Assembly: GCA_043742865.1 (NCBI GenBank)
Contig: JAYTXR010000012.1
Span: forward strand, 1-43,054
Length of the DNA: 43,054 nt
Direction of reading: 5' to 3'
DNA from: Acetobacteraceae bacterium
Lineage (GTDB): Bacteria; Pseudomonadota; Alphaproteobacteria; Acetobacterales; Acetobacteraceae
Both the position numbers and the translations under genes were made by a program. This document shows positions 27,742 through 42,799 of this stretch, in pieces. The number at the start of each line of letters is the position of its first letter. The stretch's first letter is position 1. The notes below the pieces were generated by a model, which saw only the letters and a program-made list of their open reading frames with translations, was not told where the DNA came from and searched no databases.

Positions 27742-28023
27742 ATAGGGGTTTTCCTTGCGTAAATTCGCTATTCAATAGATAGGCTTTACTCATTATGGCT
27801 AAAATGAATTGTAGAAAAGTATTTTTTTCTCCCGCCGCGCGTCCTTCCGCCAGCGTTCGCCTTGCCGGAGCGGTCGTTGCCCGTGCCCGCCAGCCTGATG
27901 TCACGGCCCCGATTTCATGCCCGGACTTCATCCCCTGGTCGCTGCCAGCCCCATCCGGCTACTGTTGCGCGCTTGACAATCCTGCACGGCGGCGAACCCC
28001 GCGAGCCCCCCAACGCCGCGGCC

Positions 28024-29475
28024 ATGCGCAGGCTTTTCTTTCACGTTTTCCCATCGATCATGCTGCCCGTGTTTCTCTCGGCGCTGGATCAGACCATCGT
28101 CTCGACGGCGCTGCCCGCCATTGCCGGTGCCCTCGGCAATGTCGAACAGATCTCGTGGATCGTCGTCGCCTACCTGCTGGCCAACACCATCGCCGCCCCC
28201 ATTTACGGCCGCCTCGGGGATGCACTGGGACGCAAGCGCATGCTCTACGTCGCGCTGGCGATCCTCATGACCGGCTCTCTGATCGGCGCAGCGGCGCCCA
28301 ATTTGTGGGTTTTGGTCCTCGCCCGGGTGTTGCAAGGCCTTGGCGGCGGCGGACTGATGACGTTGTCGCAGGCGCTGATCGGGGAGGCGGTGCCACCCCG
28401 CCAGCGCGGTCGTTATCAGGGGTATCTGGCCACCACATTTGTCACCGCCAGCACCTTCGGTCCCGTGGTTGGCGGTTATCTGACCGAGCATCTGGGCTGG
28501 CGCGCCGTGCTGCTGGTGAATATTCCGCTGGGCCTGCTGTCGATGTTGCTGGCGATCCGGTTGAAATCCCAATACCAGGGCGGTGGCCGGTTCAGCTTCG
28601 ACATCTGGGGCACGGTATTCTTCGCGCTCACCATCGTCCCCGGCCTGATCGCCTTGGAACAGGCACGCAAGCTGGATGCCCACGCATTGCCGCTGATCCT
28701 GCTGCTGCTCGTGATCGCCGCCGTCTCGCTGTTTGTGCTGATACGCCAGGAGCGCCGTGCCCCAACGCCGCTTCTGCCGGTCAATCTGTTGCGCGACCCC
28801 ACCATTCTTCGCAGCGATTTGATGGCGCTGTGCCTCGCCGGTGCGGTCGTCTCGATGATCACGTTTTTGCCGCTCTATTTGCAGGTTGCCCGCGGCGTCT
28901 CGCCTAGCGACACCGGAATGATGATGTTGCCGCTTACCGCCGGCATCGGCGTCGGCTCCATCTTCACCGGACGGATGATCGCACGTACCGGCCGCACCGC
29001 CATCTGGCCGTCCTTAGGGCTCGCGATCAGCGTGGCGATGCTGGTATTCCTGGCGATCCTGGCGCCGCAGCTTCCGGTGTCGGTACTCCCCTGGGCTTTC
29101 GCGGCTATCTCGATGAGCTTTGGCACCGGCATGCCGGTCGTGCAGATCACGGTCCAAACGATGGCCGGCCCGACATCGCTTGCCGCTGCCGCGGCTTCCG
29201 TGCAGATCTCCCGCTCGGTCGGCGCCGCCTTCGCCACGGCCGTTGTCGGCACAATCCTGTTCGCTGTCCTCGCCGCCAAGGACGCGCAGACGGCGGCGAT
29301 GTTCACCGAACTGATCCAGCACGGCCCGCCCATACTCGCAAACTTGGATCAGGTCCGTCGAGAGGCGGTGCAGACCGAGATCGCCGAAGCCTTCCAGGCT
29401 GCCTTTCTTACCATCGCCGGCTTCGCCACCGCCGCTCTGCTACTGGCCTGGAGCATACCGGTCCGGCGGCTATAG
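28024..29475 (+). CDS. MFS transporter, DHA2 (EmrB/QacA-type, 14-TMS) efflux family
   Basis: From the ATG at 28024: FPSIMLPVFLSALDQTIVSTALPAIAGALG, GRLGDALGRKR, LARVLQGLGGGGL. About 483 aa with 14 hydrophobic segments. Confidence 0.85.
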   Translation: MRRLFFHVFPSIMLPVFLSALDQTIVSTALPAIAGALGNVEQISWIVVAYLLANTIAAPIYGRLGDALGRKRMLYVALAILMTGSLIGAAAPNLWVLVLARVLQGLGGGGLMTLSQALIGEAVPPRQRGRYQGYLATTFVTASTFGPVVGGYLTEHLGWRAVLLVNIPLGLLSMLLAIRLKSQYQGGGRFSFDIWGTVFFALTIVPGLIALEQARKLDAHALPLILLLLVIAAVSLFVLIRQERRAPTPLLPVNLLRDPTILRSDLMALCLAGAVVSMITFLPLYLQVARGVSPSDTGMMMLPLTAGIGVGSIFTGRMIARTGRTAIWPSLGLAISVAMLVFLAILAPQLPVSVLPWAFAAISMSFGTGMPVVQITVQTMAGPTSLAAAAASVQISRSVGAAFATAVVGTILFAVLAAKDAQTAAMFTELIQHGPPILANLDQVRREAVQTEIAEAFQAAFLTIAGFATAALLLAWSIPVRRL

Positions 29476-29532: not shown

Positions 29533-31647
29533 CTAGGGAGCCGTTTCCGCCAATCCGGCGAGCCTTAACCCCTCAGCATAATGAAGCAGGTCCTCGGGCC
29601 GGGTCAGGGGGGATCGCGCCACCGCGTCGCGCACGCAGAATTTTGGTTCCAGAACCAACAACCGTTCCCGCAAGTTCTTCGCTTCGGTCAGCCGCCCCAG
29701 ATGGCCCAGCGCAGCCAAATGTCCTTTGTACGTCGATGAGAAGGTTGGGTTTAGCGCCAAAGCCCGGTTGCCGAGTCCGATCGCGAGATCATAGGACTGC
29801 AGCATCAGAAATGGCATCATCGCCGCCATATCGAAAAAGAACCCATGCGGATCGAACGGCGATAGCTTTCGCGCCTGCGCGATCCTCTCGATGGCTTCCT
29901 CATGCCTTCCCAGATAGGAAAGCGAGAGCCCCGAGAAACACCAGGCCAGCGCGAGATGCGGATTAACCGCCAACGCCTGCTCGTGCAACTGCAACCCTTC
30001 CTCGGCGTGCCGTCCGAGGAAGCAGCGAACGTGACCCGCGATTGTCAGGGCCCGGGCATCCGTCGGGTCGAGCCTCACGGCGCGTTCAGCCAGATCCCCC
30101 CCGAGCAGCGTTGCCGCCGCCACATCCTCTGCCCACCCCTGCCCAACCAGCAATAAATGCCAATAGGCATACCAGGCATGAGCCGAAGCATGGGTAGGAT
30201 CCAAGACGATTGCAGCTGCCAGCATCTCCCCGGCATCGTGAAATCCCTCCAGCTCAAGACGGTAGATCGCCGGAATGGCGCGCAGCAGCAGATGATCCGC
30301 ACTGGCGCCATCGCGCGGCAGGGAACGGGCCTTTTCCCCTTCGCGCACCAGCAATTCAGGATCCAGTTGGGCCACTGTCTCTGCCGCGATTTCTTCCTGT
30401 AGCGTCAGTAAGTCGGTCTCCTGGCGATCAAACCGCCTCGCCCAGATCACTTCCTCACCGGCATGCAGATCCAGCAATCGTATCATGACCCGCGCTCGGC
30501 CACGGCCACGCTGCACGGTTCCCTCCAGCAACAGATCCAAACCCAGCAACCGCCATGCCCCGCCCCCGCCAACCTGGCCCACGGCATTCTGCTGTGCCAG
30601 GGCACTCATGGAACTGGGGGCCACGCAAGAAAGCCAACTCAGCCGCGACAGGGTGTAGGTAATTTCCTCCGCCACTCCCAGCGACAATTCGTCCGTCTGG
30701 GAGGCGTCCAACATGCGCAGCGGCATTACGCCGATCCGCACCGGGCGATACCCGACGGAAACCGGAGCGAGGCCTGGCACCTGTGACGTCTTCGCCTGAT
30801 CGGCCGGCGGCCCGGGCCGGACGGAACGGATATCGGAAAAGACCTCTGCTGAACCCCGATTGCGGATGCTTGAAAGTATAGAAGCCGTCTCCTCCGAAGG
30901 AGCGAGTTGTGCCACTGCCGCCAGTGCATCGGCGCAACGTTCATAAGTGCTCACCGCAGCGGCCCGATCCCCCCTGGCTGCATGCACCCGGATCAAGACA
31001 CGCCAGGCGCCTTCATGCGCCCGGTCGATGGCGATCAGAAGTTCGGCCGCGCGGACCAAAGTCTCCATCCCCGCATCGGTCCCATCGGCCCCGGCCGTCT
31101 GGCAGGCAGCCAACCAGGCCTCCGCCCGGACGCGCGCCAATCCGGACAAAATTTCGGTCTGCGCTGCCCGCCAGCGGTCAAATGCCGGATCGATACCCGC
31201 CAGATCTTCGACCAGGGTCGGGCGGAACAATTCCAGCGCCTCGGGCCGGCTCACTCCGCCACGCGACAGCGCCTGGATGTCCACCTGCACAAGCTCGCTC
31301 AGCGATCGGCTTGCAGGCGCGTTTCCCAGGGAGAGATGGGTGCGATCCACCAGAAACAACGCCGGATCCATCCCGCCCAAAAGGTCACCTAGCTCGTGGA
31401 CGGCCTGACGCAGCGAGGCTCTGGCTTGCTCGCGCTCCCGTCGGCTCCACAGCAGTTCCGTCAACTCATCGCGTCTCACCGGTCTTCCGGCATTCAGCGC
31501 GAGCACCGCCAGCACTCCGCGCGTCTTGCGGCCTTTGGGCAGCAGGTTTGCTCCGTCCGGCCCACGCACGTCCATGGTCGAAAACAGTCTCACCCGCAGG
31601 AGCGGAAATCCCAGTTCAGGGACGGATACTCGGGGATCGCGTTCCAT
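29533..31647 (-). CDS. Large transcriptional regulator: N-terminal winged-helix (OmpR/SARP-type) DNA-binding domain plus central domain plus C-terminal TPR repeats
   Basis: The N-terminus LRVRLFSTMDVRGPDGANLLPKGRKTRGVLAVLALNAGRPVRRDELTELLWSRREREQARASLRQAVHEL is a SARP/trans_reg_C-type wHTH with a BTAD-like continuation. The C-terminal third has repeated TPR-like helices (AHAWYAYWHLL, ALTIAGHVRCFLGRHAEEGLQLHEQALAVNP, AWCFSGLSLSYLGRHEEAIERIAQARKLSP, YKGHLAALGHLGRLTEAKNLRERLL). Start is the ATG at 31647 or the TTG at 31677. Confidence 0.75.
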   Translation of the reverse strand: MERDPRVSVPELGFPLLRVRLFSTMDVRGPDGANLLPKGRKTRGVLAVLALNAGRPVRRDELTELLWSRREREQARASLRQAVHELGDLLGGMDPALFLVDRTHLSLGNAPASRSLSELVQVDIQALSRGGVSRPEALELFRPTLVEDLAGIDPAFDRWRAAQTEILSGLARVRAEAWLAACQTAGADGTDAGMETLVRAAELLIAIDRAHEGAWRVLIRVHAARGDRAAAVSTYERCADALAAVAQLAPSEETASILSSIRNRGSAEVFSDIRSVRPGPPADQAKTSQVPGLAPVSVGYRPVRIGVMPLRMLDASQTDELSLGVAEEITYTLSRLSWLSCVAPSSMSALAQQNAVGQVGGGGAWRLLGLDLLLEGTVQRGRGRARVMIRLLDLHAGEEVIWARRFDRQETDLLTLQEEIAAETVAQLDPELLVREGEKARSLPRDGASADHLLLRAIPAIYRLELEGFHDAGEMLAAAIVLDPTHASAHAWYAYWHLLLVGQGWAEDVAAATLLGGDLAERAVRLDPTDARALTIAGHVRCFLGRHAEEGLQLHEQALAVNPHLALAWCFSGLSLSYLGRHEEAIERIAQARKLSPFDPHGFFFDMAAMMPFLMLQSYDLAIGLGNRALALNPTFSSTYKGHLAALGHLGRLTEAKNLRERLLVLEPKFCVRDAVARSPLTRPEDLLHYAEGLRLAGLAETAP

Positions 31648-31775
31648 GTCGTCCAGCCAGCGCCTCCGATCGACCAACCCAGATGCGAGTTATTGAAAAT
31701 TGTATTCTGAATCACACTATCGTGAGTTCATCCAGTCCGCAATAATCCTTTGTAAACAGATATAGGAAAATTGTC

Positions 31776-31805
31776 TTGACGCGCGTTCCCGATCCATCCT
31801 AGGAT
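31776..31805 (+). promoter_or_regulatory. Candidate sigma70-type promoter upstream of the small peptide ORF
   Basis: TTGACG (31776-31781), an 18-nt spacer, then TAGGAT (31800-31805). The -10 element is embedded in the 10-bp palindrome ATCCTAGGAT (31796-31805), and GAAAATTGT abuts the -35. This is a sequence match only. Confidence 0.3.
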
Positions 31806-31986
31806 TAAACTGTCAACAGGCGTACTGCGCCCGCAGACTTTCCAACGCAAATTCATCCTCCGTCCCGACCGTCTCTGGGTAGTTTTGCCCGGCGCGCCAG
31901 GATAAGGCTGCCCATTTGCCGGCTGGAATGCGGCAACATCGGCAGGTCGCAAGTTGACAACCCCACATCGTCCGGAAGGATCTAAA

Positions 31987-32151
31987 ATGATGCAGGTTTC
32001 CTCGAATACCGCTCTGCCCAAGCCGACCAACGCGGACACCGTCGATAACGGTACCATTCACATCGGCGGCGGCTTTCGTCTTTCGCCGGTGGAAATCGCC
32101 GATAGCGCCCGCGTTCGCGTTGGCGGCGGCTTCCGCCTGCCTACCGCCTGA
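31987..32151 (+). CDS. 54-aa peptide with duplicated GGGFRL motif (candidate precursor or signalling peptide)
   Basis: GGAAGGA Shine-Dalgarno lies 6 nt upstream of the ATG at 31987. Translation: MMQVSSNTALPKPTNADTVDNGTIHIGGGFRLSPVEIADSARVRVGGGFRLPTA. It has no signal peptide or TM. A stem-loop follows, then a gene with its own strong RBS. Confidence 0.55.
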   Translation: MMQVSSNTALPKPTNADTVDNGTIHIGGGFRLSPVEIADSARVRVGGGFRLPTA

Positions 32152-32158
32152 CGATAAA

Positions 32159-32187
32159 GGCCAGGGGGAGCGAAGCTCCCCCTGGCC
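32159..32187 (+). terminator. Perfect 13-bp stem-loop directly after the peptide ORF (attenuator or partial terminator)
   Basis: GGCCAGGGGGAGC-GAA-GCTCCCCCTGGCC, starting 8 nt after the TGA. No clear U-tract follows (GCCTCTCGTGGGTGTTC). Confidence 0.55.
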
Positions 32188-32232
32188 GCCTCTCGTGGGT
32201 GTTCAATCCGGCCCAAACCAGGAGACCCGGTT

Positions 32233-33009
32233 ATGCCTCAGAACCTTTCCGTCAGAGCCGCCTGCGGTGCGCCGGTCGTCCACTTCCACCGACTGATCGA
32301 ACAGGCACGTGTGCCGATCCGCGCCGACCGGTCCGCTGCCGGAACGCTGCCGGCACGCGCCCTGCGATACTGCGAAGCCGTCACTTCCGCCGCCGGCTTT
32401 GGATGGTGGGTGTTTCCGCCGATCGATCTGACGCTGATGTGGGACGGCGACTCGATTTTCTGGCTTTACCAGGATGAATGGCTGGCGCTGACCACCGCAC
32501 AGTTTCCAGGCTTTTCCCGCGCATTCGATGCCGCGGCCCCGGCCGACCTGGCCGGTTGCGCGCCGCCCTTCCTCACCGTGTTGCCGGAACCGGGCACCTT
32601 GCAAATTTGGACCGGCCTGATCGCGCGCACGGCTCCGGACTGGAGTTTGCTGATCCGTCCTCCAGCCAACCTGGCGCTGCAAGGTGGCTATGCCCTTTAT
32701 GAAGGCATTGTCGAGGCCGACCGCTGGTTCGGACCGCTGTTTACCAATCTGCGCTTTACCCGCAGCCACACGCCTGTTCGCCTCACCGCGGACTTTCCCC
32801 TGGCCCAGGTCCAGCCGATTCCCCGCCACGCCTATAGTGACACAACCCTTGCGTCCATCGCTCTGACCCCCACGCTCGCCGCCCTCTCTTCGGCTGAATG
32901 GGATTCGTATCGGGTGAGTATCGCTGAACCCAGCTCTCGGCCCAACCGTCCTTTTGGCGCCTACGCGACCGAGACCCGAAAACGCCGCCGCGGCTTGTGC
33001 CCGGTCTGA
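32233..33009 (+). CDS. 258-aa protein of unknown function (possibly DUF6065-like)
   Basis: AGGAGA lies 7 nt upstream of the ATG. The N-terminal stretch ARALRYCEAVTSAAGFGWWVFPPIDLTLMWDG resembles the R-x-C-x-P/A-x3-A-x3-GW-x-[IV]-x2-P-x-D/F...W signature I associate from memory with DUF6065 proteins (unverified). It has no TM, no signal peptide and no recognisable cofactor motif. Confidence 0.65.
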   Translation: MPQNLSVRAACGAPVVHFHRLIEQARVPIRADRSAAGTLPARALRYCEAVTSAAGFGWWVFPPIDLTLMWDGDSIFWLYQDEWLALTTAQFPGFSRAFDAAAPADLAGCAPPFLTVLPEPGTLQIWTGLIARTAPDWSLLIRPPANLALQGGYALYEGIVEADRWFGPLFTNLRFTRSHTPVRLTADFPLAQVQPIPRHAYSDTTLASIALTPTLAALSSAEWDSYRVSIAEPSSRPNRPFGAYATETRKRRRGLCPV

Positions 33010-33048
33010 TCGACTTGCGCGAATAAGCCTGGCCGCGAGGAAATACCG

Positions 33049-33591
33049 TCAGCTTGGCATCAGGCTCAGGCAACGGCCCTTGCGGCCGGCGGAGAACAGA
33101 AATTCGACAAGTTCTCCGATCGCGGGCAGGCGCCGACACGCGACGACCCCGGTCAAACGGAGGATTTCCTCCACCGCTTGCGCCGCGCCCAACAGGCTCG
33201 GGTCGTCGCCGGTCAGAACCAGAACGGGAAGGGTTCGGTCATGCTCGGCCACGATTTTCATGACGTGACAGCCATCCTGTCCGGGGCTGTCCAACTCGCA
33301 GAACACCGCCATGGGCCTCTGCGCTTTCAGCAGCGGGGCCAGATCACGGTGGCTGGTAACCTGTTCGAGTTCGATGCCAAGAAATTCACAAATTGTCTGT
33401 AGTCCAGGCGAAAAGCGTATCTGGTCCTCTACTGCCAGCACCAGCGGTTCGCGCCGGACCGGCCCGGCAAATTCAGTGCTCCCGTCCAGGCCTCCGCCGA
33501 CGCGCCTGGCGGCCATCGGTTGCGGATCGGGTTCGATATTCCTCCAGAAAACCGTGTCTTCCCAGCAGGAATTCTTGATCACCTGTCCCAT
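33049..33591 (-). CDS. Stand-alone receiver (REC)-like protein with N-terminal extension, atypical
   Basis: 180 aa. LVLAVEDQ is the beta1 acidic pair, as ED. AVFCELDSPGQDG places an Asp at the phospho-acceptor position. PVLVLTGDD carries the conserved Thr. The usual Lys-Pro of beta5 is replaced by RRLP. There is no output domain. Confidence 0.55.
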   Translation of the reverse strand: MGQVIKNSCWEDTVFWRNIEPDPQPMAARRVGGGLDGSTEFAGPVRREPLVLAVEDQIRFSPGLQTICEFLGIELEQVTSHRDLAPLLKAQRPMAVFCELDSPGQDGCHVMKIVAEHDRTLPVLVLTGDDPSLLGAAQAVEEILRLTGVVACRRLPAIGELVEFLFSAGRKGRCLSLMPS

Positions 33592-33748
33592 GGCATTCCC
33601 CGACGATTAGTAGTCCACGACCGGCCGGACCCTTTGCAGTGGTTCGCCGGACAGGGTCAGTATCAGGGATAGTTAATCTTTATTAAAGATTTCAACCTTA
33701 AGTTATGCCGTTAGATTTATGGATTTTTCCGTGAAAAGCCGTTAATTA

Positions 33749-34204
33749 TTATCCTCTCGTTAATTTCACGGTCCATCGGCACCGTCCGGATACCAGATTT
33801 CCTTCAATCGCGTCCGAACCATCGGACAAATCGATCACCCGGGCGTGAAACAGAATCGTCAGCATCTTCTTATCTCCGCCTGCCCGTTCCTGGGAAGGTT
33901 CAAACGCGTTATCGGGGCCGAGCTTGCCCCGGATGGTCACGGTGTTCTGAAACGGCGCGAAGCCGAAGCCGCCACGTCCAACACTCATCAAGCCGGTCGT
34001 CGTGCTCCCGCATCCGGGCCCATCCGGCGCCACCGGGCCCACCCATCGCCCTTCGACGCCGCCAAGACCCACGACGCGCCCGGATTGCAGTATCGCCGCC
34101 GGATCGGAACTGGCGCACCCGAAAACCAGAAGGGGGAGGGCGATCTGAAGGCCATAAGAAAAAAAACTGATAAAAGGAATTTTTCCCTTGACCAACCGCC
34201 CCAT
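33749..34204 (-). CDS. Predicted lipoprotein, unknown function
   Basis: 151 aa from the ATG at 34204. MGRLVKGKIPFISFFSYGLQIALPLLVFGCASS is a signal peptide with the lipobox VFGC. The longer track ORF (to 34372) would overlap the phage small-terminase gene. Confidence 0.5.
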   Translation of the reverse strand: MGRLVKGKIPFISFFSYGLQIALPLLVFGCASSDPAAILQSGRVVGLGGVEGRWVGPVAPDGPGCGSTTTGLMSVGRGGFGFAPFQNTVTIRGKLGPDNAFEPSQERAGGDKKMLTILFHARVIDLSDGSDAIEGNLVSGRCRWTVKLTRG

Positions 34205-34217
34205 AAAATCGTATATA
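34188..34217 (+). promoter_or_regulatory. Candidate promoter at the left edge of the phage structural module
   Basis: TTGACC (34188-34193), an 18-nt spacer, then TATATA (34212-34217), in an AT-rich patch. It is very close to the ATG at 34221, so either the mRNA is nearly leaderless or the true start or promoter differs. Confidence 0.25.
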
Positions 34218-34220
34218 TCT

Positions 34221-34595
34221 ATGCATGATGCAGACACGCGCACAACACCGCGCAAAACTGCAACTTCCCCCATCTCGTCCATCCAAGACCCCACACCGCT
34301 CGACATTCTGCTGACGACCATGCGGCAGAAATGGTCAGGCGGCGATCCCGTTGGCGCCGCGGCAATCGCCAAGATCGTCGCTCCCTATATCCACTCACGT
34401 CCAATCCATTCACGCCCAGTCCACACGCGTACAGTCCATTCACGTCCGGTCCATTCAAGCCGGGCAACCACCGGCAATCTTTCCGAAACCCAAACGGAAC
34501 TGCACCGACTGACCGATGACGAACTCGCAATCAGACTGGCGTCAGCTCACCGGGGAGCAGAAGACCCGCCAGACGATCCGCACCAGCCTGACTGA
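34221..34595 (+). CDS. Phage terminase small-subunit-like protein
   Basis: It lies directly upstream of, and overlaps, the large terminase gene. TPLDILLTTMRQKW...AAAIAKIVAPYIHSR resembles the conserved segment (..PLEFLL.VMRD......AA.AAAPY.H..) of small proteins that precede TerL in alphaproteobacterial phages (from memory). It contains an HSRPx pentapeptide repeat. Confidence 0.5.
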   Translation: MHDADTRTTPRKTATSPISSIQDPTPLDILLTTMRQKWSGGDPVGAAAIAKIVAPYIHSRPIHSRPVHTRTVHSRPVHSSRATTGNLSETQTELHRLTDDELAIRLASAHRGAEDPPDDPHQPD

Positions 34596-35931
34596 TTGGG
34601 CTTGCGTCGCCCTGGACCCGTTAGGGCAGTCTCCCGCCGCCCATCATCACCTGTTGATCTCCGAGCTGGAAAAAATCGCCACCGGGCTAAACGACCGCCT
34701 GATGCTGCTGCTGCCGCCCGGCAGCGCCAAATCAACCTATGCGTCCGTCCTGTTCCCAGCCTGGTGGTTCACCCAGCACGCCCAAAGCTCGGTCATCGCG
34801 GCCTCCCACACCGCGGACCTCGCCCATCATTTTGGCCGTCAGGTTCGGGATCTGGTCACCGCGCAGGGCGAACGGCTCGGCTACACCCTGGCCCAGCACA
34901 GCCGGGCGGCCGGACGGTGGCGCACCTCCCTCGGGGGTGAGTATTTCGCGGTCGGGATCCGCGGGCCGGTCACCGGCCGCCGGGCTGACCTCGCCATCAT
35001 CGACGATCCCATTAAATCGCACGCGGAGGCAGACAGCGCAAACCAGCGGGACCTGCTTTGGAACTGGTACCGTGCGGATCTGATCACCCGACTGAAGCCG
35101 GGTGGGCGCATCGTGCTGATCATGACCCGGTGGCACGAAGACGATCTGGGCGGGCGGTTGCTGTCGCATCAAAAAGGGCAGTGGCGCGTCCTCCGCCTTC
35201 CCGCCCTGGCCGAACCGAATGACCCGCTCAACCGTCCCGAAGGCGCACCGCTTTGGCCGGATTGGGAAAGTGCTGAAGCGCTCGATCGCAAGCGCGCCAC
35301 TGTGGGCGAGCGGGTCTGGTCGGCGATGTATCAGCAGACCCCTCGGCCCGCCCATGGCAGCCTGTTCATGATCCGGCCTATCGAGATCGCCGACCAGCCG
35401 CCGCTATCGGGCCGCTCGGTCCGGGCCTGGGATCTCGCCGCCACGCCCAAGCGGCCCGACAACAACCCGGACTGGACCGTCGGCGTTAAGTTGCACCGAA
35501 CCGACTCCCAGCACTTCACGGTCACCGATGTTATCCGCCTGCAAGGCAGTCCGCACCAGGTAGAGGAAGCCATCCTCCACACCGCCAAACTGGATGGCCG
35601 CCCGGTCACCATCTCCCTACCGAAGGACCCCGGCTCCGCCGGCGGTTTCGTCGCCAGTTATCTTGCCGGGCAGCTGGCAGGATACAACCTGGTCATCACA
35701 TCCGAAACCGGCTCGAAAGCCTCTCGCGCCGCCCCTGTGGCGGCACAGATCGAAGCCGGCAATGTCTCCATCGTTCGCGCCACATGGAACCATGCCTTCC
35801 TGGAAGAACTTCGAGACTTTCCGTACGGCATCAAGGACGATCAGGTAGATGCCTTGTCACGCGCCTTCGCCGCCCTGATCGAACAGGGTGCTCCGGCTCG
35901 CCGGATGACCGTGCCCTTCCTCGCCCGTTAG
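34516..35931 (+). CDS. terL: Phage terminase large subunit
   Basis: 471 aa. LLLPPGSAKSTYASVLFPAWWF is Walker A-like. ADLAIIDDP is Walker B. LIMTRWHEDDLGGRL is the coupling motif. A C-terminal nuclease-type region includes DDQVDALSRAF. Confidence 0.9.
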   Translation: MTNSQSDWRQLTGEQKTRQTIRTSLTDWACVALDPLGQSPAAHHHLLISELEKIATGLNDRLMLLLPPGSAKSTYASVLFPAWWFTQHAQSSVIAASHTADLAHHFGRQVRDLVTAQGERLGYTLAQHSRAAGRWRTSLGGEYFAVGIRGPVTGRRADLAIIDDPIKSHAEADSANQRDLLWNWYRADLITRLKPGGRIVLIMTRWHEDDLGGRLLSHQKGQWRVLRLPALAEPNDPLNRPEGAPLWPDWESAEALDRKRATVGERVWSAMYQQTPRPAHGSLFMIRPIEIADQPPLSGRSVRAWDLAATPKRPDNNPDWTVGVKLHRTDSQHFTVTDVIRLQGSPHQVEEAILHTAKLDGRPVTISLPKDPGSAGGFVASYLAGQLAGYNLVITSETGSKASRAAPVAAQIEAGNVSIVRATWNHAFLEELRDFPYGIKDDQVDALSRAFAALIEQGAPARRMTVPFLAR

Positions 35932-35938
35932 GACCTGC

Positions 35939-37357
35939 ATGTTTGAAACCATTTGCGACCTGATCCCCCAGGATCGGGACTACCCGCCGCGCGCGCGCGT
36001 GCTGGACATCCTCAAACGCGTCCTGAATGGCACTTTCTATGACGTGCTGCCCAACCAGTTTCATGAAGAAAGAGGTCCTGGCGGAGACTACATTCCGCTG
36101 CGCAACCGCCGCCCATCGGTCCGGTATGCCCTCTCGCGGATCGTCGTCGAGGACAGTGTCGCGCTGTTGTTCAGTGAGGGACATTTCCCGACCATCGACT
36201 GCGCCGACCGGACGATCCGTGCCGCATTGGCCGACATTGCCAAGGAGACGCGGCTCAACCAAATCATGACCGAGGCAGCGATCCGCGGCTCGATCGGCTC
36301 GGTCGCCATCCTGATGCGCGTGCTCCGCGGCCGTATCTTCTTCGAGGTTCTCGATACCACCTGGCTTAATCCAATCTGGGACCCGGAGGCACCCGACACG
36401 CTGAAGGCCGTTACCGAGCGTTATAAGGTGGCGGGACGTTTCCTCGCCGCCACCAGCTACGATATCGGCGACCCCAGCGTCGATTATTGGTTTTCCCGCA
36501 GTTGGGACAGTGGCGGCGAAACCTGGCTGCTGCCGCAACCGGTTGGGAATGATGGCCCGCCTGAGATAGACACCGAACGAAGCGTCCGCCACGGGCTTGG
36601 CTTTGTCCCCATCGTCTGGATAAGGAACCTCCCCGGATTTTCGGCGACCGCCGATCCGAATGACGGCGCGTGCACATTCCGCAGCGCCATCGAGACGCAA
36701 ATTGAAATCGACTACCAGCTCAGCCAGGCCGGCCGCGGCCTGAAATACAGTTCCGATCCCACATTGCTGATCAAGGAACCGGCAACCGCCGATACCGAGA
36801 TCGTCAAGGGTGCCGGCAATGCATTGGTTGTCAGTGAAAAAGGTGATGCCAAGCTGCTGGAAATCGGCGGTACGGCGTCGGCCGCGGTCATCGACTATGT
36901 CCGCACCTTGCGCGAATTCGCACTTGAAAGCGTGCACGGCAACCGGGCCAGCGCGGATCGCCTGAACGCGGCGCAATCGGGGCGGGCGCTGGAGCTGATG
37001 AACCAGGGCCTGATCTGGCTCGCCGACAATCTTCGAGTCAGCTACGGCGAGGGTGCGTTGCTGCAGCTCGCCCGCATGGTCTTGCGGGCGTCCAATACCT
37101 ATCGTTTACAGGTATTGGGCAATGAGATTTCAACGCTCGACCCGGCCGCACGGTTAACGTTGAAATGGCCCCGCTGGTATCCCCCTACGGCGGAGGATCG
37201 TCAGCGGGACGCGCAGACCCTCGCCACGCTCGCCGCCTCCGGACAGATTTCTCGTGAAACGGCCGTCAAGTCGATCGCCGATATCTACGATATCGAGGAT
37301 GTGCCGGCCGAGCTCGCCCGCATATCCGCATCCCGAAAACCGCTCAGGAAGGCCTAA
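35939..37357 (+). CDS. Putative phage portal protein
   Basis: 472 aa, immediately after terL and before the scaffold and capsid genes. Both size and position are canonical. No specific family motif was recognised by eye. Confidence 0.6.
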   Translation: MFETICDLIPQDRDYPPRARVLDILKRVLNGTFYDVLPNQFHEERGPGGDYIPLRNRRPSVRYALSRIVVEDSVALLFSEGHFPTIDCADRTIRAALADIAKETRLNQIMTEAAIRGSIGSVAILMRVLRGRIFFEVLDTTWLNPIWDPEAPDTLKAVTERYKVAGRFLAATSYDIGDPSVDYWFSRSWDSGGETWLLPQPVGNDGPPEIDTERSVRHGLGFVPIVWIRNLPGFSATADPNDGACTFRSAIETQIEIDYQLSQAGRGLKYSSDPTLLIKEPATADTEIVKGAGNALVVSEKGDAKLLEIGGTASAAVIDYVRTLREFALESVHGNRASADRLNAAQSGRALELMNQGLIWLADNLRVSYGEGALLQLARMVLRASNTYRLQVLGNEISTLDPAARLTLKWPRWYPPTAEDRQRDAQTLATLAASGQISRETAVKSIADIYDIEDVPAELARISASRKPLRKA

Positions 37358-37764
37358 TGACAGTCACAGAACAGCCACCGGACGAGCCTGACCCTCTCGC
37401 GCAATTGCGTGCCCGCGCGGATGCGCTGGAACATCTGCTTGCCGCGACCCAGGCAGAAACGGAAGCTCGCCTGGTTCGTGCGGAGCTCAAGGCCGAGGCG
37501 ATCCGCGCCGGTATGGTGGATCTCGACGGACTGAAGCTGCTTGATTTTTCCCGTTTGAAACTATCGAAATCCGGGGAGTTAGACGACGCCGGAACGATCA
37601 TGTCCAAGTTCCGGCAAGCTAAGCCCTGGCTGTTCGGCGCGGCGTCCTCCTCATCGCCCGCCACGGCGCCGCCGGCCCAGCCGCCCCGCAAGAAATTGGC
37701 AACCGAAATGACGGATGCCGAATACCGAGCCGCCCGCGCGGACCTCGTCAAACGTCGAAGCTGA
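37357..37764 (+). CDS. Putative phage scaffolding protein
   Basis: 135 aa. It is a charged helical protein (LAQLRARADALEHLLAATQAETEARLVRAELKAEAIRAG) between the portal and major capsid genes. Its ATG overlaps the portal TAA by 1 nt. Confidence 0.55.
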   Translation: MTVTEQPPDEPDPLAQLRARADALEHLLAATQAETEARLVRAELKAEAIRAGMVDLDGLKLLDFSRLKLSKSGELDDAGTIMSKFRQAKPWLFGAASSSSPATAPPAQPPRKKLATEMTDAEYRAARADLVKRRS

Positions 37765-37798
37765 ACTCCCCATAATCTGAGTTAGAGGAACAATCCGC

Positions 37799-39121
37799 AT
37801 GGGTATTCAAAACTTCCCCGCCGCGCTCCAGCCGATCATCCAGCAAGGCTTCCTGGAACGTGAATTTCAACAGGCGCTGCATTCCCGTCTCGGGTACCGC
37901 GCCGTCGCCGATCGTGAAGACATCGCCGTGGGGATAGGTGAAACCCTCACCAAGACCCGCGCCGGGCTCAAGCCCAGCGTCACAATCCCGCTGCCGCCGG
38001 CCACCAACACCAATCTCGACAACGGCCTGACACCGACAACCTGGGGGGTCGAGCAGTACACGCTGACCATCAACCACTACGCCGCAACCACCGACCTCAA
38101 TATGGTTACGTCCCGGGTCGGCATCGCCAGTCAATTTCTGCAAAATGCTTTCATTAATGGCGAGCAGGCAGCCCGTTCGCTGGATGAACTGGCACGCAAT
38201 GCCTTGTTCGCGTCGTATTTCGGCGGCAATAGTCGGGTACGTAGCACGCTCAGTGTGGCCGGCCCCAGCGTCAACGTCGACGATATCCGTGGCTTCCAGA
38301 ACGTGTTCATCAACGGCGTCCAAACGCCGGTCAGCACCGCGGCGTCGCTCACCGTCACCATCGGCGCCAATCCGTACACGCTGACCGGAACGGCGGCCGA
38401 TGCCGCCAATCTGTCCACCACGCCGGGCGGCATCTCGGGCGTGCTGACCTTGGCTGCCGCGGTTGCAGTTTCCGACGGCACCGCCGGCACCGCCGTCACC
38501 GCGGCCAATGCCTCGGTGATTGTGCGGCCATTCAGCCGTTCGAACACCACCAACCTGATCGCCGGCGATACGCTGACGATGTCCAACCTACTCGACGCGG
38601 TCGCCAAGCTACGCCTGAATGCCGTTCCCGAGATCGATGGGGTCTATAATTGCTATCTTGACCCGGTCTCCGCCCGCCAGTTGTTCGCCGACAATGATTT
38701 CCGCCAGCTGTTTCAGGGCGCTACGTCCGCGAACCAGGTCTTTCGTCAGGGCATGGTCAATGATTTCCTGGGCTTGCGGTTCATTCCCACCACGGAAGCC
38801 TATGTCCAGCCGCATCCGACGCTTGCTGGCTTGATGGTCCGCCGCCCGATCGTCTGCGGCCAGGGCGCGCTGATCGAAGGCGACTTCGCTGGCATGGCGG
38901 AAGATGATATCGCCCCCAGCGACAGCATCGTCTCGTTGGTTGATGGTGTGGCGATGGTGACGCGTGAACCGATCGACCGGCTGCAGCAGATCATTGCCCA
39001 GTCCTGGTACTGGATCGGCGGCTTCTGCGCCCCGTCCGACACCACGACCAATCCGGCGACGATCCCAACCGCCACCAACGCCGCCTTCAAACGCGCGGTG
39101 ATGATCGAACACGTCGGCTGA
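37799..39121 (+). CDS. Putative phage major capsid protein
   Basis: 440 aa with AGAGGA upstream of the ATG. Position after the scaffold gene, the size, and an Ala/Thr/Gly-rich composition are typical of major capsid proteins. Confidence 0.6.
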   Translation: MGIQNFPAALQPIIQQGFLEREFQQALHSRLGYRAVADREDIAVGIGETLTKTRAGLKPSVTIPLPPATNTNLDNGLTPTTWGVEQYTLTINHYAATTDLNMVTSRVGIASQFLQNAFINGEQAARSLDELARNALFASYFGGNSRVRSTLSVAGPSVNVDDIRGFQNVFINGVQTPVSTAASLTVTIGANPYTLTGTAADAANLSTTPGGISGVLTLAAAVAVSDGTAGTAVTAANASVIVRPFSRSNTTNLIAGDTLTMSNLLDAVAKLRLNAVPEIDGVYNCYLDPVSARQLFADNDFRQLFQGATSANQVFRQGMVNDFLGLRFIPTTEAYVQPHPTLAGLMVRRPIVCGQGALIEGDFAGMAEDDIAPSDSIVSLVDGVAMVTREPIDRLQQIIAQSWYWIGGFCAPSDTTTNPATIPTATNAAFKRAVMIEHVG

Positions 39122-39195
39122 TAGCCACGAACGGATCGATAACCAACGGCGCGGCAACGCGCCAGCCTCCCATCTGCCAAAGGACCGGCCCGCCG

Positions 39196-39576
39196 ATGTC
39201 TCTCACCGATGCCGAAAAGACCGACGCGCGCCGGTTCTGTGGCTATCCCGCTTACGGTGCGGGGGCGGCAGGATTTCAGAACTGGAGGTTCTATCAAGCC
39301 TATGGCCTGCTCGAATTTCGTCTCAACAACCTGGCCGATGCCGAACTTGCCGTGTTGCGCGGCTATCTGAACACCCTGCTCGGCCTGGAGGCAGCGATCC
39401 CGAACGCCGCCGCCAACCTCGATACCGACCAAGCCGCGGTATGGACTCGAAATCGCAATGAAACTGCGGACAGGGCGGCACTGTTTGACGATTGGCGCCG
39501 CCGCCTCTGTGGCTTCCTCGGGATGCCGGCGGGGCCTGGGCTTGCCTCCGGCGGCTCCGTGACCTTGGTCGTATAG
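39196..39576 (+). CDS. Phage hypothetical protein (head-associated position)
   Basis: 126 aa. The codon usage looks coding and it lies in the same-strand phage module. Confidence 0.5.
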   Translation: MSLTDAEKTDARRFCGYPAYGAGAAGFQNWRFYQAYGLLEFRLNNLADAELAVLRGYLNTLLGLEAAIPNAAANLDTDQAAVWTRNRNETADRAALFDDWRRRLCGFLGMPAGPGLASGGSVTLVV

Positions 39577-40235
39577 TGGATCGATCTCATCTGCAGGACC
39601 GCATCAGCTGGGGTCTGAACGTCGCCGCCCGCCACATCGGCCGCAGCACCGACGCCTATCGTGCAAATGACTGCGTAGACGCCCTGTCACCGGCCAATCG
39701 CTTCCTGAAGCTGCAGGCAGCCTTCAGCGCGCCCGACGGCAAGTTTGTTCGCCCCAGCGGCTACGGCAATCCGCTCTGGTATGGGGTTTTCGACAATGCC
39801 TACACGCAGCCGGGTGACTACCTGGTACAAGACGCTGAGATCTGGTTTGTTGTCGCCCAACAGCCGTTGCTGCCGGTGCTGTGCGTTCAGACCAATCGCA
39901 CGGTCAGCTTTGCCCGACCCGCCTCGCCCAACGCGATCGGCCTCAATGCGTATGGGGGCGTTTCTGCCCAGACCGCCGAGACATTGATCCGTGACTTTCC
40001 AGCCAGCGTTCTTGGCACCTCTGGTTCCAGCCATCCCGCCGCCAGCCTGCCGGGCGACACCTCCATCGGCTACTGGACCGTGCTGCTCCCAGCGGTATCA
40101 GCACCGGATGGCACACTCGTCATTCTGCGGCAGGCCGATCTCATGACCGACGAGCTTGGCCGGACCGGCGTTGTCGCCGGCGCCGAGCTGACGGATCTCG
40201 GCTGGCGGCTCAACGTGAAGCAGGCAACCACCTGA
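39576..40235 (+). CDS. Phage hypothetical protein
   Basis: The GTG at 39576 overlaps the preceding TAG by 1 nt. 219 aa. The track ORF start at 39492 would overlap the previous gene by 85 nt. Confidence 0.45.
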   Translation: MDRSHLQDRISWGLNVAARHIGRSTDAYRANDCVDALSPANRFLKLQAAFSAPDGKFVRPSGYGNPLWYGVFDNAYTQPGDYLVQDAEIWFVVAQQPLLPVLCVQTNRTVSFARPASPNAIGLNAYGGVSAQTAETLIRDFPASVLGTSGSSHPAASLPGDTSIGYWTVLLPAVSAPDGTLVILRQADLMTDELGRTGVVAGAELTDLGWRLNVKQATT

Positions 40236-41044
40236 TGGCCGATCAGTCGGATGTAGAAAATGCCCTCGCCGCTCTGGTCGCTGCCGCGCTGTATCCAAGG
40301 GGTCCGGATGCACCCAGCCTTCCGGGCCCTTCCTGCCGCGTCTATCGCGGCTGGCCGAACCCGGCAGCGCTCGATGCCGATCTGGCGATGGGACACGTCA
40401 ACGTCACAATCTTCGCCGGCGATGCCGCGCCCCGCCTGACCACGCGCTTTGCCGAGGAATTTCTATCGACACCGGTCACGCCGACCCTGCAGGCGTCGGT
40501 GTCAGGCTCGTCGGTTGCCTTCACCGGGAGCGCCGATCCTGGCCAACTCGCCGGCGTCCTTGTCGATGGCCAGCCTTACGTCTATCGAACACTGTCCAAC
40601 GATACCTCCGCTTTGGTTGCGGCAACGATCGGCTCGCTGATCCGTGCCACGCGTATCGTTCATCTCCACGACGCGACGCTCGATATATACGGTGCCCACA
40701 CCGTTGCCGCACGCGTTGTGGCGTTCCGCTCCGTGCTCCAGGAAATCCGTCGTCAACGCCTGAGGATCCGCGTCAGCTGTTGGTGCCCCAGCCCAACTTC
40801 ACGCGATGCCACGGCGGCGTCGATCGACGCCGCTTTCGCATCCACGCGCTTCGTGACTCTGGCGGATAATTCTCAGGCCTGGCTCACCTTTGCCGGCGGT
40901 GCGGTGTTCGATCAGTCCGAAAACGCCTCGCTCTATCGCCGCGACCTTCGCTATGCGGTCGAATACGCCACCACGCTCAGTCAATCTCAGCCGGAAATGC
41001 TGTTCGGCGCCCTCGGCGTGAACGCTCTTCACATCACCGCATAG
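40235..41044 (+). CDS. Phage hypothetical protein
   Basis: 269 aa. Its ATG overlaps the preceding TGA as ATGA-type coupling at 40233-40237. Confidence 0.5.
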   Translation: MADQSDVENALAALVAAALYPRGPDAPSLPGPSCRVYRGWPNPAALDADLAMGHVNVTIFAGDAAPRLTTRFAEEFLSTPVTPTLQASVSGSSVAFTGSADPGQLAGVLVDGQPYVYRTLSNDTSALVAATIGSLIRATRIVHLHDATLDIYGAHTVAARVVAFRSVLQEIRRQRLRIRVSCWCPSPTSRDATAASIDAAFASTRFVTLADNSQAWLTFAGGAVFDQSENASLYRRDLRYAVEYATTLSQSQPEMLFGALGVNALHITA

Positions 41045-41057
41045 ATATGGAGACACG

Positions 41058-41210: not shown

Positions 41211-41215
41211 TACCC

Positions 41216-42775: not shown

Positions 42776-42799
42776 CGGCACCCGCGACAGGATTATCGA

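Follow-up and report, generated by a model that had tools for sequence, protein, structure and literature searches.

We analyzed a small open reading frame (ORF) and its surroundings in a 43,054-nucleotide window of Acetobacteraceae DNA (positions 1 to 43,054 of contig JAYTXR010000012.1, GenBank assembly GCA_043742865.1; the window denotes this whole stretch). The ORF at 31987-32151 on the forward strand encodes a peptide of 54 amino acids and lies between a divergently transcribed regulator gene and a DUF6065 gene on the same strand. The features of the locus are as follows.

29533-31677 (-): divergent 714-aa regulator with a predicted winged-helix/BTAD (SARP-like) N-terminus, then a TolB_N-like domain, then TPRs
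29545-30897 (-): putative sensor module of this regulator (residues ~261-711, TolB_N-like plus TPR), which includes residue L624
31764-31805 (+): predicted promoter of the small gene, AGGAAAATTGTC-TTGACG (-35, 31776-31781), an 18-nt spacer, and TAGGAT (-10, 31800-31805)
31812-31825 (+): conserved motif GTCAACAGGCGTAC just downstream of the -10 box, which may be either the transcript start region or an operator
31974-31980 (+): Shine-Dalgarno sequence GGAAGGA, 6 nt before the ATG
31987-32151 (+): small gene of 54 aa, a repeat-unit peptide with two units
32035-32088 (+): unit 1, DTVDNGTIHIGGGFRLSP (residues 17-34)
32092-32145 (+): unit 2, EIADSARVRVGGGFRLPT (residues 36-53)
32159-32187 (strand not assigned): intercistronic hairpin of 13 bp (11 G-C) between the peptide gene and DUF6065
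32233-33009 (+): DUF6065 protein of 258 aa with a predicted dUTPase-like beta-barrel
33049-33591 (-): stand-alone receiver-domain protein of 180 aa, convergent with DUF6065

The first-pass annotation described this ORF as a 54-aa peptide with a near-consensus Shine-Dalgarno sequence and two copies of a GGGFRL-containing module, and our analysis confirmed that observation. The translation is exactly as described, and both the ribosome-binding site and its 6-nt spacing were verified. The back-translated pattern GGGF[RK]L occurs twice in the 43-kb window, both times inside this ORF, whereas 0.02 occurrences are expected from shuffled sequences. At the DNA level, the repeat is 48 nt long with 71% identity, spaced by 57 nt or 19 codons. 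Within the 11-residue modules described initially, 22 of 33 nt and 6 of 11 aa are identical, and the GGGFRL cores differ only by synonymous changes (TTT/TTC, CGT/CGC, and CTT/CTG). The GC content at third codon positions is 0.73, similar to that of the neighboring genes. The N-terminus is hydrophilic (MMQVSSNTALPKPTNADT) and contains no hydrophobic core or stretch, in agreement with the proposed absence of a signal peptide. Two points of the earlier description required correction. The repeated unit is longer than 11 aa, since it starts about 7 residues upstream of the first Gly at a conserved Asp (D20 and D39 here), and the proposed leader of about 23 aa therefore overlaps unit 1.

Conservation of the small ORF next to homologs of the downstream 258-aa protein, which had been proposed in advance as a test, was clearly confirmed. 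In 88 of 90 evaluable DUF6065 loci from Acetobacteraceae genomes and IMG/VR contigs, a position weight matrix (PWM) search identified a unit-bearing ORF on the same strand within 1.5 kb upstream of DUF6065. Only one further PWM hit occurs elsewhere in 1.1 Mb across six frames, and the two loci without the peptide (L069 and L077; L numbers denote individual DUF6065 loci) also lack the TPR partner described below. The precursors carry 1 to 14 copies of a single 17-residue unit, [AST]-T-A-D-[TA]-G-[RK]-I-R-[LF]-G-[GA]-G-X-R-L-P, although most relatives have only one. Among 111 units distinct at the nucleotide level, G0 is invariant (111/111), and D(-7) (110/111), G(-5) (108/111), and R(+4) (109/111) are nearly so. 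G(+2) was found in 111/111 units because the search pattern required it, and it is replaced in loci found later with the PWM. Each of these residues is encoded by 2 to 5 synonymous codons, and dN/dS against orthologs of the 54-aa gene is 0.21-0.46, corroborating the earlier suggestion that the repeat is maintained at the protein level.

Position X is Phe in this window and most often Tyr, Trp, Cys, Met, Leu, or Ile elsewhere. It is aromatic in about 68% of precursors (27 Phe, 19 Tyr, and 14 Trp of 88) and C, M, L, I, A, or S in about a third. X is identical in all units of a precursor in 32 of 32 multi-unit cases and in 34 of 34 further database precursors, but it switches between close relatives. 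Both units change from F to Y together in near-identical peptides such as P0294 and P0297, and X differs between loci whose DUF6065 proteins are 93-97% identical. Searches of Pfam and NCBIfam gave no match for the peptide. Of its 581 database relatives, the 120 best, which were listed, carry no Pfam domain, and the named ones are called 'hypothetical protein' apart from one stray JGI label. Thus, the peptide is not a fragment of a known family. The family has a cultured carrier, Acidisphaera sp. S103 (peptide WP_158923516.1).

The TolB_N-like/TPR module forms a third partner, and a homolog of the regulator carrying it lies in 77 of 82 non-redundant genome loci. The module is fused to a winged-helix-BTAD region in 50 loci of architecture A, whereas in 25 of 27 loci of architecture B the same module (45-52% identity) is fused to a hybrid histidine kinase (HisKA+HATPase_c+REC), always beside the peptide-DUF6065 pair. 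In the 714-aa regulator of this window, the Trans_reg_C and BTAD scores of 21.9 and 19.9 bits fall below the Pfam gathering cut-offs of 26.2 and 22.1 bits. PDB matches were obtained to the winged helix of EmbR (2fez; residues 46-110, E = 4.9e-5) and to consensus TPRs (residues 488-682), and homologs carry a precomputed PF03704 assignment. The receiver-domain protein (Pfam Response_reg, E = 8.5e-8) is present in 45 of 88 loci, all of architecture A.

The sequence elements predicted to control expression are conserved as well. The promoter was found by a consensus scan, and its AGGAAAAT..CTTGAC(-35)..-10 arrangement is conserved in the four closest loci and in 37 loci of architecture A. The motif GTCAACGGG[CA].. 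occupies the same place downstream of the -10 box in 37 loci of very different sequence. The Shine-Dalgarno sequence is conserved as GGAAGGA in the related loci L001, L009, and L010. In contrast, SARP-type direct repeats of ATTGTCTT spaced 22 nt apart are present in L009 and partly in this window but are not general. The intercistronic hairpin begins 8 nt after the stop codon; the 101-nt stretch containing it (32140-32240) folds at -50.7 kcal/mol (z = -4.6), and its own 45-nt window folds at -34 kcal/mol. A comparably strong hairpin of unrelated sequence follows the peptide stop codon in 37 of 58 loci, whereas architecture-B loci have a 55-nt gap without a hairpin, and the distance from the stop codon to DUF6065 is 190-470 nt in many loci. 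A search of Rfam found no RNA family in 31400-33700.

We further compared position X with the sequences of its partners, using the best 80 of 471 GTDB loci. The sensor column corresponding to L624 is F or Y in 9 of 9 systems with X = Trp and in 5 of 58 others, and it ranks first among 699 columns. The pattern recurs in both architectures (L013 versus L015, L016, L022, and L025; L033 versus L023), and DUF6065 has no comparable column. However, the covariation is only modestly significant once phylogeny is considered, as a crude UPGMA/Fitch analysis gave three coincident changes where about 0.7 were expected (p about 0.02). Sensor divergence in close pairs differing in X had a median gap of 11% compared to 8%, a comparison that is confounded.

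The 258-aa partner belongs to DUF6065 (PF19541), with 51.1 bits against a gathering cut-off of 26.6 (E = 1.6e-13), and is 60-85% identical across Acetobacteraceae. Its AlphaFold2 model has a pLDDT of 74, with the conserved segment 33-54 unmodelled. Foldseek searches with this model gave trimeric dUTPases as the best PDB matches (E = 1.6e-4, TM on the target 0.64-0.75), but TM on the query is only 0.35-0.38 with an rmsd of 4-8 Å, so the match is moderate. In BFVD, the best matches were uncharacterized phage proteins followed by dUTPases. In contrast, a family HMM found no PDB sequence, and hhalign comparisons with approximate sequences of E. coli Dut and Dcd gave a probability of 0.1, with none of the five dUTPase motifs alignable. 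PADLOC matched none of the five module proteins examined; in PHROGs, DUF6065 and the 207-aa ORF had no match, and the receiver protein hit only two families of unknown function. Literature searches on DUF6065 (PF19541), the hexapeptide motifs, and dUTPase-like proteins in connection with precursor peptides returned nothing relevant.

Among more distant DUF6065 proteins, a first alignment was too diverse to be used for searching. Some relatives at 30-40% identity from other GC backgrounds also have small upstream ORFs with a strand followed by GGG, one of which (L127) is multi-unit. In these distant relatives the peptide ends 2-5 residues after GGG and X is absent. In a second scan, several distant loci had no recognizable small ORF, and hence the pairing is not universal across the whole Pfam family. 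Distant DUF6065 genes lie beside a LanB dehydratase, an NRPS C-A protein, a PEP mutase, and MFS exporters. Within the set of loci analyzed here, exporters are only sometimes adjacent, namely PF03601 in about 31 loci and MFS in this window (27862-29475) and in two others. Pfam and NCBIfam searches of the window genes and the conserved neighbors found only DUF6065, regulators, and occasional transporters, with no known RiPP maturase, leader peptidase, RRE, dedicated exporter, or immunity gene in the conserved core and no Opp genes among the conserved neighbors.

The first-pass annotation interpreted the ORF as a candidate RiPP-like precursor or signaling peptide, and this interpretation is partly supported. 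The signaling part gains support from the TPR partner and from the sensor residue that tracks X, within the statistical limits given above. The RiPP part is less well supported, since no recognized maturase, protease, or dedicated exporter belongs to the conserved core, the partner has a predicted dUTPase-like fold never linked to peptide chemistry, and a simple anatomy of leader plus repeated cores does not fit well, given that the whole 17-aa unit is conserved rather than a core flanked by recognition sites.

Based on these results, we tentatively propose that the ORF is a translated small gene belonging to a conserved three-part module of a repeat-unit peptide, a DUF6065 protein, and a cytoplasmic TolB_N-like/TPR sensor protein. 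In this view, the peptide would be transcribed from its own conserved promoter, and the hairpin after its stop codon would keep it in excess over DUF6065. DUF6065 would bind each unit through the invariant part, a short beta-strand ([RK]-I-R-[LF]) followed by the G-[GA]-G turn, and then process or modify it, a RiPP-like logic with one product per unit. Binding would occur by strand addition, with the Gly turn lying in the conserved R-A-D-R/R-Y-C-E/E-T-D pocket of DUF6065. The peptide or its product would be read in the cytoplasm by the TPR module, with residue X (Phe here) as the specificity determinant, which would contact L624. In this window the proposed reader is a SARP-like transcription factor, which presumably feeds back on the divergent promoter and possibly acts on neighboring genes. 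The comparative data establish that the gene is real, that it is conserved as a protein, that the three partners are genetically linked, and that the output domain is swapped on a constant sensor module. On the other hand, expression of the peptide, its binding and any modification or cleavage by DUF6065, sensing by the TPR module, and autoregulation are inferences from sequence and genomic context alone. The absence of a signal peptide and the cytoplasmic location of the sensors mean that cell-to-cell signaling would need unknown export and import, and conservation of the whole unit, together with the early end of the distant peptides, fits a binding motif as well as it fits a precursor.

The leading alternative, which we consider possible but less likely, is that the peptide is an unmodified intracellular connector whose units are short linear motifs binding the TPR sensor directly, with DUF6065 acting as a binder, sequestering protein, or degrader. 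The conservation of the whole unit, the cytoplasmic sensors, the lack of a signal sequence, the peptide-binding consensus type of the TPRs, the distant peptides ending right after GGG, and P0124, which looks like a fusion of a degenerate unit to DUF6065, are consistent with this view, and the X-L624 covariation fits direct binding equally well. However, up to 8-14 identical units are easier to explain as product amplification. DUF6065 is far more conserved (60-85%) than the regulators (45-50%), with many invariant polar residues, as enzymes are; a strong hairpin separates the two genes, as between precursor and enzyme genes; and distant DUF6065 genes lie in biosynthetic contexts. It is unlikely that the peptide is instead the precursor of a secreted natural product, such as an antimicrobial or another extracellular RiPP, made by DUF6065 and merely regulated by the SARP-like or kinase proteins. 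SARP-type activators are classic pathway regulators of biosynthetic clusters, the unit is a cationic strand-turn-strand, transporters lie nearby here and in other loci, and distant DUF6065 genes neighbor LanB, NRPS, and PEP mutase genes, but the constant element beside the peptide-DUF6065 pair is the TPR module rather than the output domain, a sensor residue tracks X, and the conserved core contains no exporter or immunity gene.

The remaining explanations are more doubtful. The peptide could be a detached arm subunit that completes a nucleotide-binding site of the dUTPase-like DUF6065 in trans, as motif V, a Gly-rich arm with a stacking Phe, does in dUTPases. The predicted fold and the strand followed by G-G-G and, in about 68% of precursors, an aromatic residue agree with this idea. 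Nevertheless, the sequence comparisons with Dut and Dcd found no similarity, DUF6065 keeps its own conserved basic C-terminal arm (G-x-Y-A..R-K-R-R), X is non-aromatic in about a third of precursors and absent in distant peptides, and neither the multi-unit arrays nor the covariation with the sensor is explained. A cis-acting leader or arrest peptide controlling read-through of the hairpin into DUF6065 is similarly improbable; the stable hairpin and the conserved R-L-P near the C-terminus of single-unit forms are suggestive, but arrays of 2-14 units with uniform X that switches between relatives make no sense for an arrest peptide, and the hairpin-free gap in architecture B, the long distances in many loci, and the lack of an Rfam element argue against it. 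High-GC DNA yields many spurious ORFs, and antisense ORFs overlap this one, but a chance open frame is already refuted by the synonymous-codon variation at invariant residues, the syntenic conservation in 88 of 90 loci, and the excess of pattern matches. We also considered and dropped resemblances to a lasso core (no Asp/Glu at ring distance and no B/C enzymes), RTX repeats (no Asp at position 6), the glycyl-radical motif R-V-x-G-Y (one residue out of register, no activase, and an aerobic host), the sortase motif LPXTG (the motif here is LP-x-x-T), and enkephalin-like GGF (a coincidence). A G-[GAS] motif as in double-glycine leaders is present, but the hydrophobic register is off by one, and no C39 or ABC gene is among the conserved neighbors.

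Neither the peptide family nor DUF6065 (about 950 clusters at 50% identity) has an assigned function, and their near-obligatory pairing with a sensor module that swaps output domains is the kind of genomic signature that has preceded the discovery of new RiPP classes and signaling systems. If DUF6065 acts on the peptide, it would add a new enzyme fold to peptide natural-product biosynthesis. If the TPR module reads the peptide, it would be a rare case of ribosomal-peptide signaling with cytoplasmic receptors in Gram-negative bacteria, with a specificity code (X against L624) amenable to mutagenesis. A more far-reaching and unlikely possibility is a communication system in Alphaproteobacteria in which DUF6065 matures the precursor into a short signal whose variable residue (F/Y/W/C/M/L/I) acts as a 'pherotype' code, read by a TPR receptor wired to either a SARP-like transcription factor or a histidine kinase. 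In the clade that includes this window, such a module would switch on the adjacent, vertically conserved myovirus-like (GTA-like) particle genes, as an arbitrium-like decision circuit outside Firmicutes.

The locus can be compared with several known systems. As in multi-core RiPP and pheromone precursors (cyanobactin PatE, microviridins, BURP/lyciumin and dikaritin precursors, and yeast alpha-factor), a ribosomal small gene has an N-terminal non-repeated part followed by a variable number of tandem near-identical units, differs in copy number between relatives, and lies directly upstream of a strongly conserved partner with an intercistronic hairpin. However, none of the class-defining enzymes is present (YcaO, radical SAM, LanB/C/M, ATP-grasp, PatA/G proteases, P450, DUF692, or BURP), the partner has a predicted dUTPase-like fold, no protease or transporter is fixed in the cluster, and only one position varies within a wholly conserved unit, in place of recognition sequences flanking a hypervariable core. 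The RRNPP and arbitrium pairs of Firmicutes and their phages (Rap-Phr, NprR-NprX, PlcR-PapR, and AimR-AimP) likewise combine a small peptide gene with an adjacent cytoplasmic TPR-containing signaling protein, several paralogous systems per genome, and a few peptide positions that set specificity (putatively X here), and in one clade our module abuts a phage-like gene cluster. In contrast to these pairs, the present system has no Sec signal peptide or Opp importer, a wHTH-BTAD-TolB_N-like-TPR or hybrid kinase-TPR receptor architecture rather than HTH-TPR, Gram-negative alphaproteobacterial hosts, the near-obligatory additional protein DUF6065, and a repeated peptide. The regulator resembles SARP-family proteins with TPRs (AfsR/EmbR type) in its EmbR-like N-terminus, its C-terminal TPRs, and its position beside a candidate biosynthetic operon, but its Pfam scores are below the cut-offs, it has no NB-ARC ATPase, a TolB_N-like domain is inserted, and the same C-terminal module is alternatively fused to a histidine kinase. 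Finally, the predicted beta-barrel core of DUF6065 superposes moderately on trimeric dUTPases of the dUTPase/dCTP deaminase superfamily, which includes phage Dut proteins that signal to the SaPI repressor Stl, and in this window the gene sits next to a phage-like cluster at 34516-43054. DUF6065 differs from this superfamily in having no sequence or profile similarity and no recognizable motifs I-V in the comparisons made, no evidence of nucleotide binding, and about 100 additional residues with a conserved N-terminal segment (R-A-D-R...R-Y-C-E) and an invariant Cys.

We first assessed the small ORF itself. ORF 31987-32151 (+) encodes MMQVSSNTALPKPTNADTVDNGTIHIGGGFRLSPVEIADSARVRVGGGFRLPTA, and GGAAGGA lies at 31974-31980, 6 nt before the ATG. 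The back-translated GGGF[RK]L pattern occurred twice in the 43-kb window, both times in this ORF, compared to an expectation of 0.02 from shuffled sequences. At the DNA level the repeat is 48 nt long, 71% identical, and spaced by 57 nt, whereas the two GGGFRL cores differ only by synonymous changes. The GC3 of the frame (0.73) matches that of the neighboring genes, and the 309-nt region upstream is AT-rich, at 0.51 GC. The observation made in the first-pass annotation, a 54-aa ORF with a duplicated GGGFRL motif, is correct, and the only correction is that the repeated unit is about 17-19 residues long rather than 11. Its interpretation as a candidate RiPP-like precursor or signaling peptide is partly supported by the comparative data described below. 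The surroundings of the ORF comprise the following features:

To the left, ordinary chromosomal genes: a xerD-like gene, aroK-aroB, DUF2889, AsnC, and MFS.
29533-31677 (-), divergently upstream, a 714-aa protein with a weak OmpR-type winged helix and BTAD, a TolB_N-like domain, and canonical TPRs.
32159-32187, downstream of the stop codon, a hairpin of 13 bp (11 GC); the 101-nt stretch 32140-32240 that contains it folds at -50.7 kcal/mol with z = -4.6.
32233-33009, a 258-aa gene belonging to Pfam DUF6065 (E = 1.6e-13).
33049-33591 (-), convergent with DUF6065, a 180-aa stand-alone receiver protein.
33749-34372 (-), a 207-aa ORF without a family match in Pfam, PHROGs, or PADLOC, conserved (36-62% identity) between the receiver gene and TerL in the 23 loci that carry the phage-like cluster.
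34516-43054, a myovirus-like structural cluster: TerL, SPP1-type portal, scaffold, major head protein, two unknown PHROGs, and a tail sheath.

The phage-like cluster lies next to the same RR/DUF6065 module in about 23 genome loci and 13 IMG/VR contigs. Its portal is 76-89% identical and its MCP 74-92% identical where DUF6065 is about 65% and the regulator about 48% identical, and no integrase abuts the left end of the cluster in the window. The cluster looks like a vertically kept cryptic prophage or a GTA-like element; conserved phage-like contigs in Acetobacteraceae have been described (PMC12142844). However, the link between the module and this cluster rests on conserved adjacency in one clade only, and the module also exists without the cluster in two thirds of loci.

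A direct search with the small ORF found only two relatives, both of which keep the two units 19 residues apart, and one of them lies in the same gene order on 24 metagenome contigs. In contrast, DUF6065 is abundant and unusually conserved, being 60-85% identical across Acetobacteraceae, with 471 hits in GTDB species genomes and 953 clusters at 50% identity. We scanned 95 non-redundant loci, namely the window, one ENA locus, the best 80 of the 471 GTDB loci (all Acetobacteraceae MAGs or isolates), and 13 IMG/VR loci. Of these, 90 have more than 150 nt of sequence upstream of DUF6065, and in 88 of the 90 the same strand carries a small ORF with at least one unit within 1.5 kb upstream. The position-weight matrix (PWM) used for this count was trained on 64 of the 88 positive loci, and the other 24 were found with it independently. 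It hit only once elsewhere in 1.1 Mb read in six frames, at a unit (IADGGRIKVGGGYRPPL) in locus L026 (position 3809), about 570 nt downstream of the DUF6065 gene on a short contig, which is possibly the start of a second module.

The unit consensus is [AST]-T-A-D-[TA]-G-[RK]-I-R-[LF]-G-[GA]-G-X-R-L-P. Among 111 units distinct at the nucleotide level, G0 and G(+2) were present in 111/111, although the search pattern required both and G(+2) is replaced in the loci found later with the PWM, whereas D(-7) (110/111), G(-5) (108/111), and R(+4) (109/111) were nearly invariant. Each of these residues is written with 2-5 synonymous codons, and dN/dS against the three closest orthologues is 0.21-0.46. 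A profile of two-unit peptides retrieved 581 database proteins; among the 120 best, which were listed, none has a Pfam domain, and the named ones are called 'hypothetical protein' apart from one stray JGI label. Based on these results, we concluded that the gene is real and that the family is unannotated.

The number of units per precursor was one in 56 loci, two in 18, three in 8, four in 2, five in 2, eight in 1, and fourteen in 1. The longest array, in locus L083 (4986-5759), has 14 PWM hits, but its second half is readable as units only in another frame, while the called frame reads DHAGWRLPPAGRDRRRQ repeats; it is either an assembly frameshift in a repeat array or a decaying array. Only one position, X (the residue after G-x-G), varies freely, with F in 27 loci, Y in 19, W in 14, C in 11, M in 6, L in 5, I in 3, A in 2, and S in 1. 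X is identical in every unit of a precursor in 32/32 multi-unit loci and in 34/34 further database precursors, even where the units have diverged at the DNA level, as in this window. In near-identical peptides both units switch together, as in the database peptides P0294 (Y/Y) and P0297 (F/F). In contrast, X flips between loci whose DUF6065 proteins are 93-97% identical, for example between L013 (W) and L015 (Y), and among L017 (C), L023 (F), and L033 (W). X therefore behaves as a rapidly evolving specificity position embedded in an otherwise frozen unit.

The four closest loci share the SD and a -35/-10 promoter (TTGACG, 18 nt, TAGGAT at 31776-31805). Across 37 loci of architecture A (defined below) of quite different sequence, the same arrangement recurs, with AGGAAAAT-n3-CTTGAC followed by a -10 box and then by GTCAACGGG[CA] a few bases downstream. 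In the window and the 37 related loci this last motif, GTCAAC[AG]GG[CA]GTAC (31812-31825 in the window), is conserved although the surrounding sequence has diverged; it is partly palindromic with the following bases and could be an operator or a 5'-terminal stem-loop. A near-perfect palindrome, TCACACTATCGTGA (TCACGCTATCGTGA in the related loci L001, L009, and L010), lies at 31712-31725, 35 nt upstream of the regulator's start codon, and is a candidate operator for a dimeric regulator. A strong GC-rich hairpin of unrelated sequence follows the stop codon in 37/58 loci, and no Rfam family matched the region. Together, this looks like a dedicated, highly expressed small transcription unit with partial read-through into DUF6065.

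A homologue of the 714-aa protein lies within 6 kb in 77/82 genome loci, in two architectures. In architecture A (50 loci plus the window) it is the divergent wHTH-BTAD-TolB_N-like-TPR regulator, often with the receiver protein downstream. In architecture B (27 loci) the gene convergent with DUF6065 encodes HisKA, HATPase_c, and a receiver domain fused to the same TolB_N-like/TPR module, which is 45-52% identical to residues ~261-711 of the window protein; this fusion was seen in 25/27 loci, and the other two are truncated contigs. The two loci without a peptide (L069 and L077) also lack this partner. A constant C-terminal module with interchangeable output domains is the signature of an input, or sensor, domain. 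In about 31 architecture-A loci, such as L055 (4123-5541), a PF03601 (YeiH-like, putative exporter) membrane protein is encoded between the regulator and the peptide gene, whereas in the window (27862-29475), L009, and L061 an MFS transporter flanks the regulator instead. Single genomes carry two or three paralogous peptide/DUF6065/sensor modules of different architecture, often with different X (for example the loci L064/L067/L070, L035/L079, L041/L046, and L012/L054), which resembles the multiple Rap-Phr-type channels seen in Firmicutes.

We further compared the sensor columns with X. The column corresponding to window residue L624, in a TPR helix (DMAAMMPF-L-M), is F or Y in all 9 systems whose peptide has X = Trp and in 5 of 58 others (Fisher p = 5e-8), and it ranks best of 699 columns. 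The pattern recurs independently in architecture B (L013 against L015/16/22/25) and in architecture A (L033 against L023, among others). On a UPGMA tree with Fitch parsimony, which corrects only crudely for phylogeny, 3 of the 6 changes in X coincide with 3 of the 8 changes at this column on 66 nodes, where about 0.7 coincidences would be expected (p of about 0.02). DUF6065 shows no comparable column. This is suggestive evidence, not proof, that the sensor reads the peptide or something that carries X.

The AF2 model of DUF6065 has pLDDT 74 and pTM 0.67, with the conserved segment 33-54 unmodelled. The best PDB matches of the model are all trimeric dUTPases (E = 1.6e-4, TM on the target of 0.64-0.75), and in BFVD the best matches are uncharacterised phage proteins, followed by dUTPases. 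However, there is no sequence-level similarity, as an HMM search of PDB sequences found nothing and hhalign against approximate sequences of E. coli Dut and Dcd gave probability 0.1. The family has many invariant polar residues and one Cys (C47, in R-Y-C-E) that is conserved even in relatives at 25-35% identity, a conservation pattern that is enzyme-like without allowing any activity to be assigned. In the 313-aa metagenome protein P0124, a degenerate unit (ADTHDVGRIRFGAAAAK) is fused in frame to a DUF6065 domain, which is either a natural precursor-enzyme fusion or a frameshift or gene-calling artefact.

A metagenome scan with DUF6065 relatives at 30-40% identity gave 29 loci. Some of these have small upstream ORFs with the same logic, a short beta-strand followed by GGG, namely MKIVISSNVPAVTSNGVQVRTAGGGSAAAK, MKKIVLSSKVKRTYSGSVKVFANGGGAR, and a multi-unit array, KD[ST][GK]KV[KR]LG[SA]GLAPAAL, whereas others have no recognizable peptide. 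In the distant loci L113 (1680-5726), L122 (2247-5771), and L115 (3716-7948), DUF6065 relatives sit directly after a full-length LanB lantibiotic dehydratase (25-nt gap), after an NRPS C-A protein with no carrier domain, and beside a PEP mutase and an MFS transporter, contexts that suggest natural-product pathways. The strand plus Gly-turn/DUF6065 pairing is therefore old, the X-R-L-P tail is specific to the Acetobacteraceae clade, and the wider family has natural-product associations.

On evidence that is comparative throughout, the analysis establishes a real small gene, protein-level selection on its repeat unit, near-obligatory linkage to DUF6065 and to a TPR module with the signature of a sensor, and a single position that behaves as a specificity position. 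It remains an inference that DUF6065 binds the invariant strand-turn and processes the unit, that the peptide or its product is the ligand of the TPR module, and that the SARP-like regulator autoregulates the conserved promoter. We favor this combined reading only tentatively, at somewhat less than even confidence. The main rival, in our view unlikely although not remote, is that the peptide is never modified and acts as an intracellular TPR-binding connector. This rival explains the lack of a signal peptide and the conservation of the whole unit, but it explains less well the arrays of 8-14 units, the enzyme-like conservation of DUF6065, and the precursor-style hairpin. A secreted RiPP with ordinary pathway regulators is less likely still, a trans-acting 'motif V arm' of a dUTPase-like enzyme and a leader or arrest peptide are both improbable, the arrest peptide slightly more so, and a chance ORF is a remote possibility.

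The peptide, the predicted fold of its partner, and the triad are not described in Pfam, NCBIfam, PADLOC, PHROGs, or the searchable literature, whereas the general plan of a peptide precursor with a partner and a regulator is already known. There is a minority chance that the module represents something categorically new, namely peptide pherotype signaling in Gram-negative bacteria, possibly controlling a GTA-like element. Compared with known systems, it works most like a multi-core RiPP or pheromone precursor coupled to an RRNPP-like cytoplasmic TPR receptor, but it fits neither of the two, since it has no class-defining maturase, no secretion signal, and no Opp system, and its receptor architecture differs.
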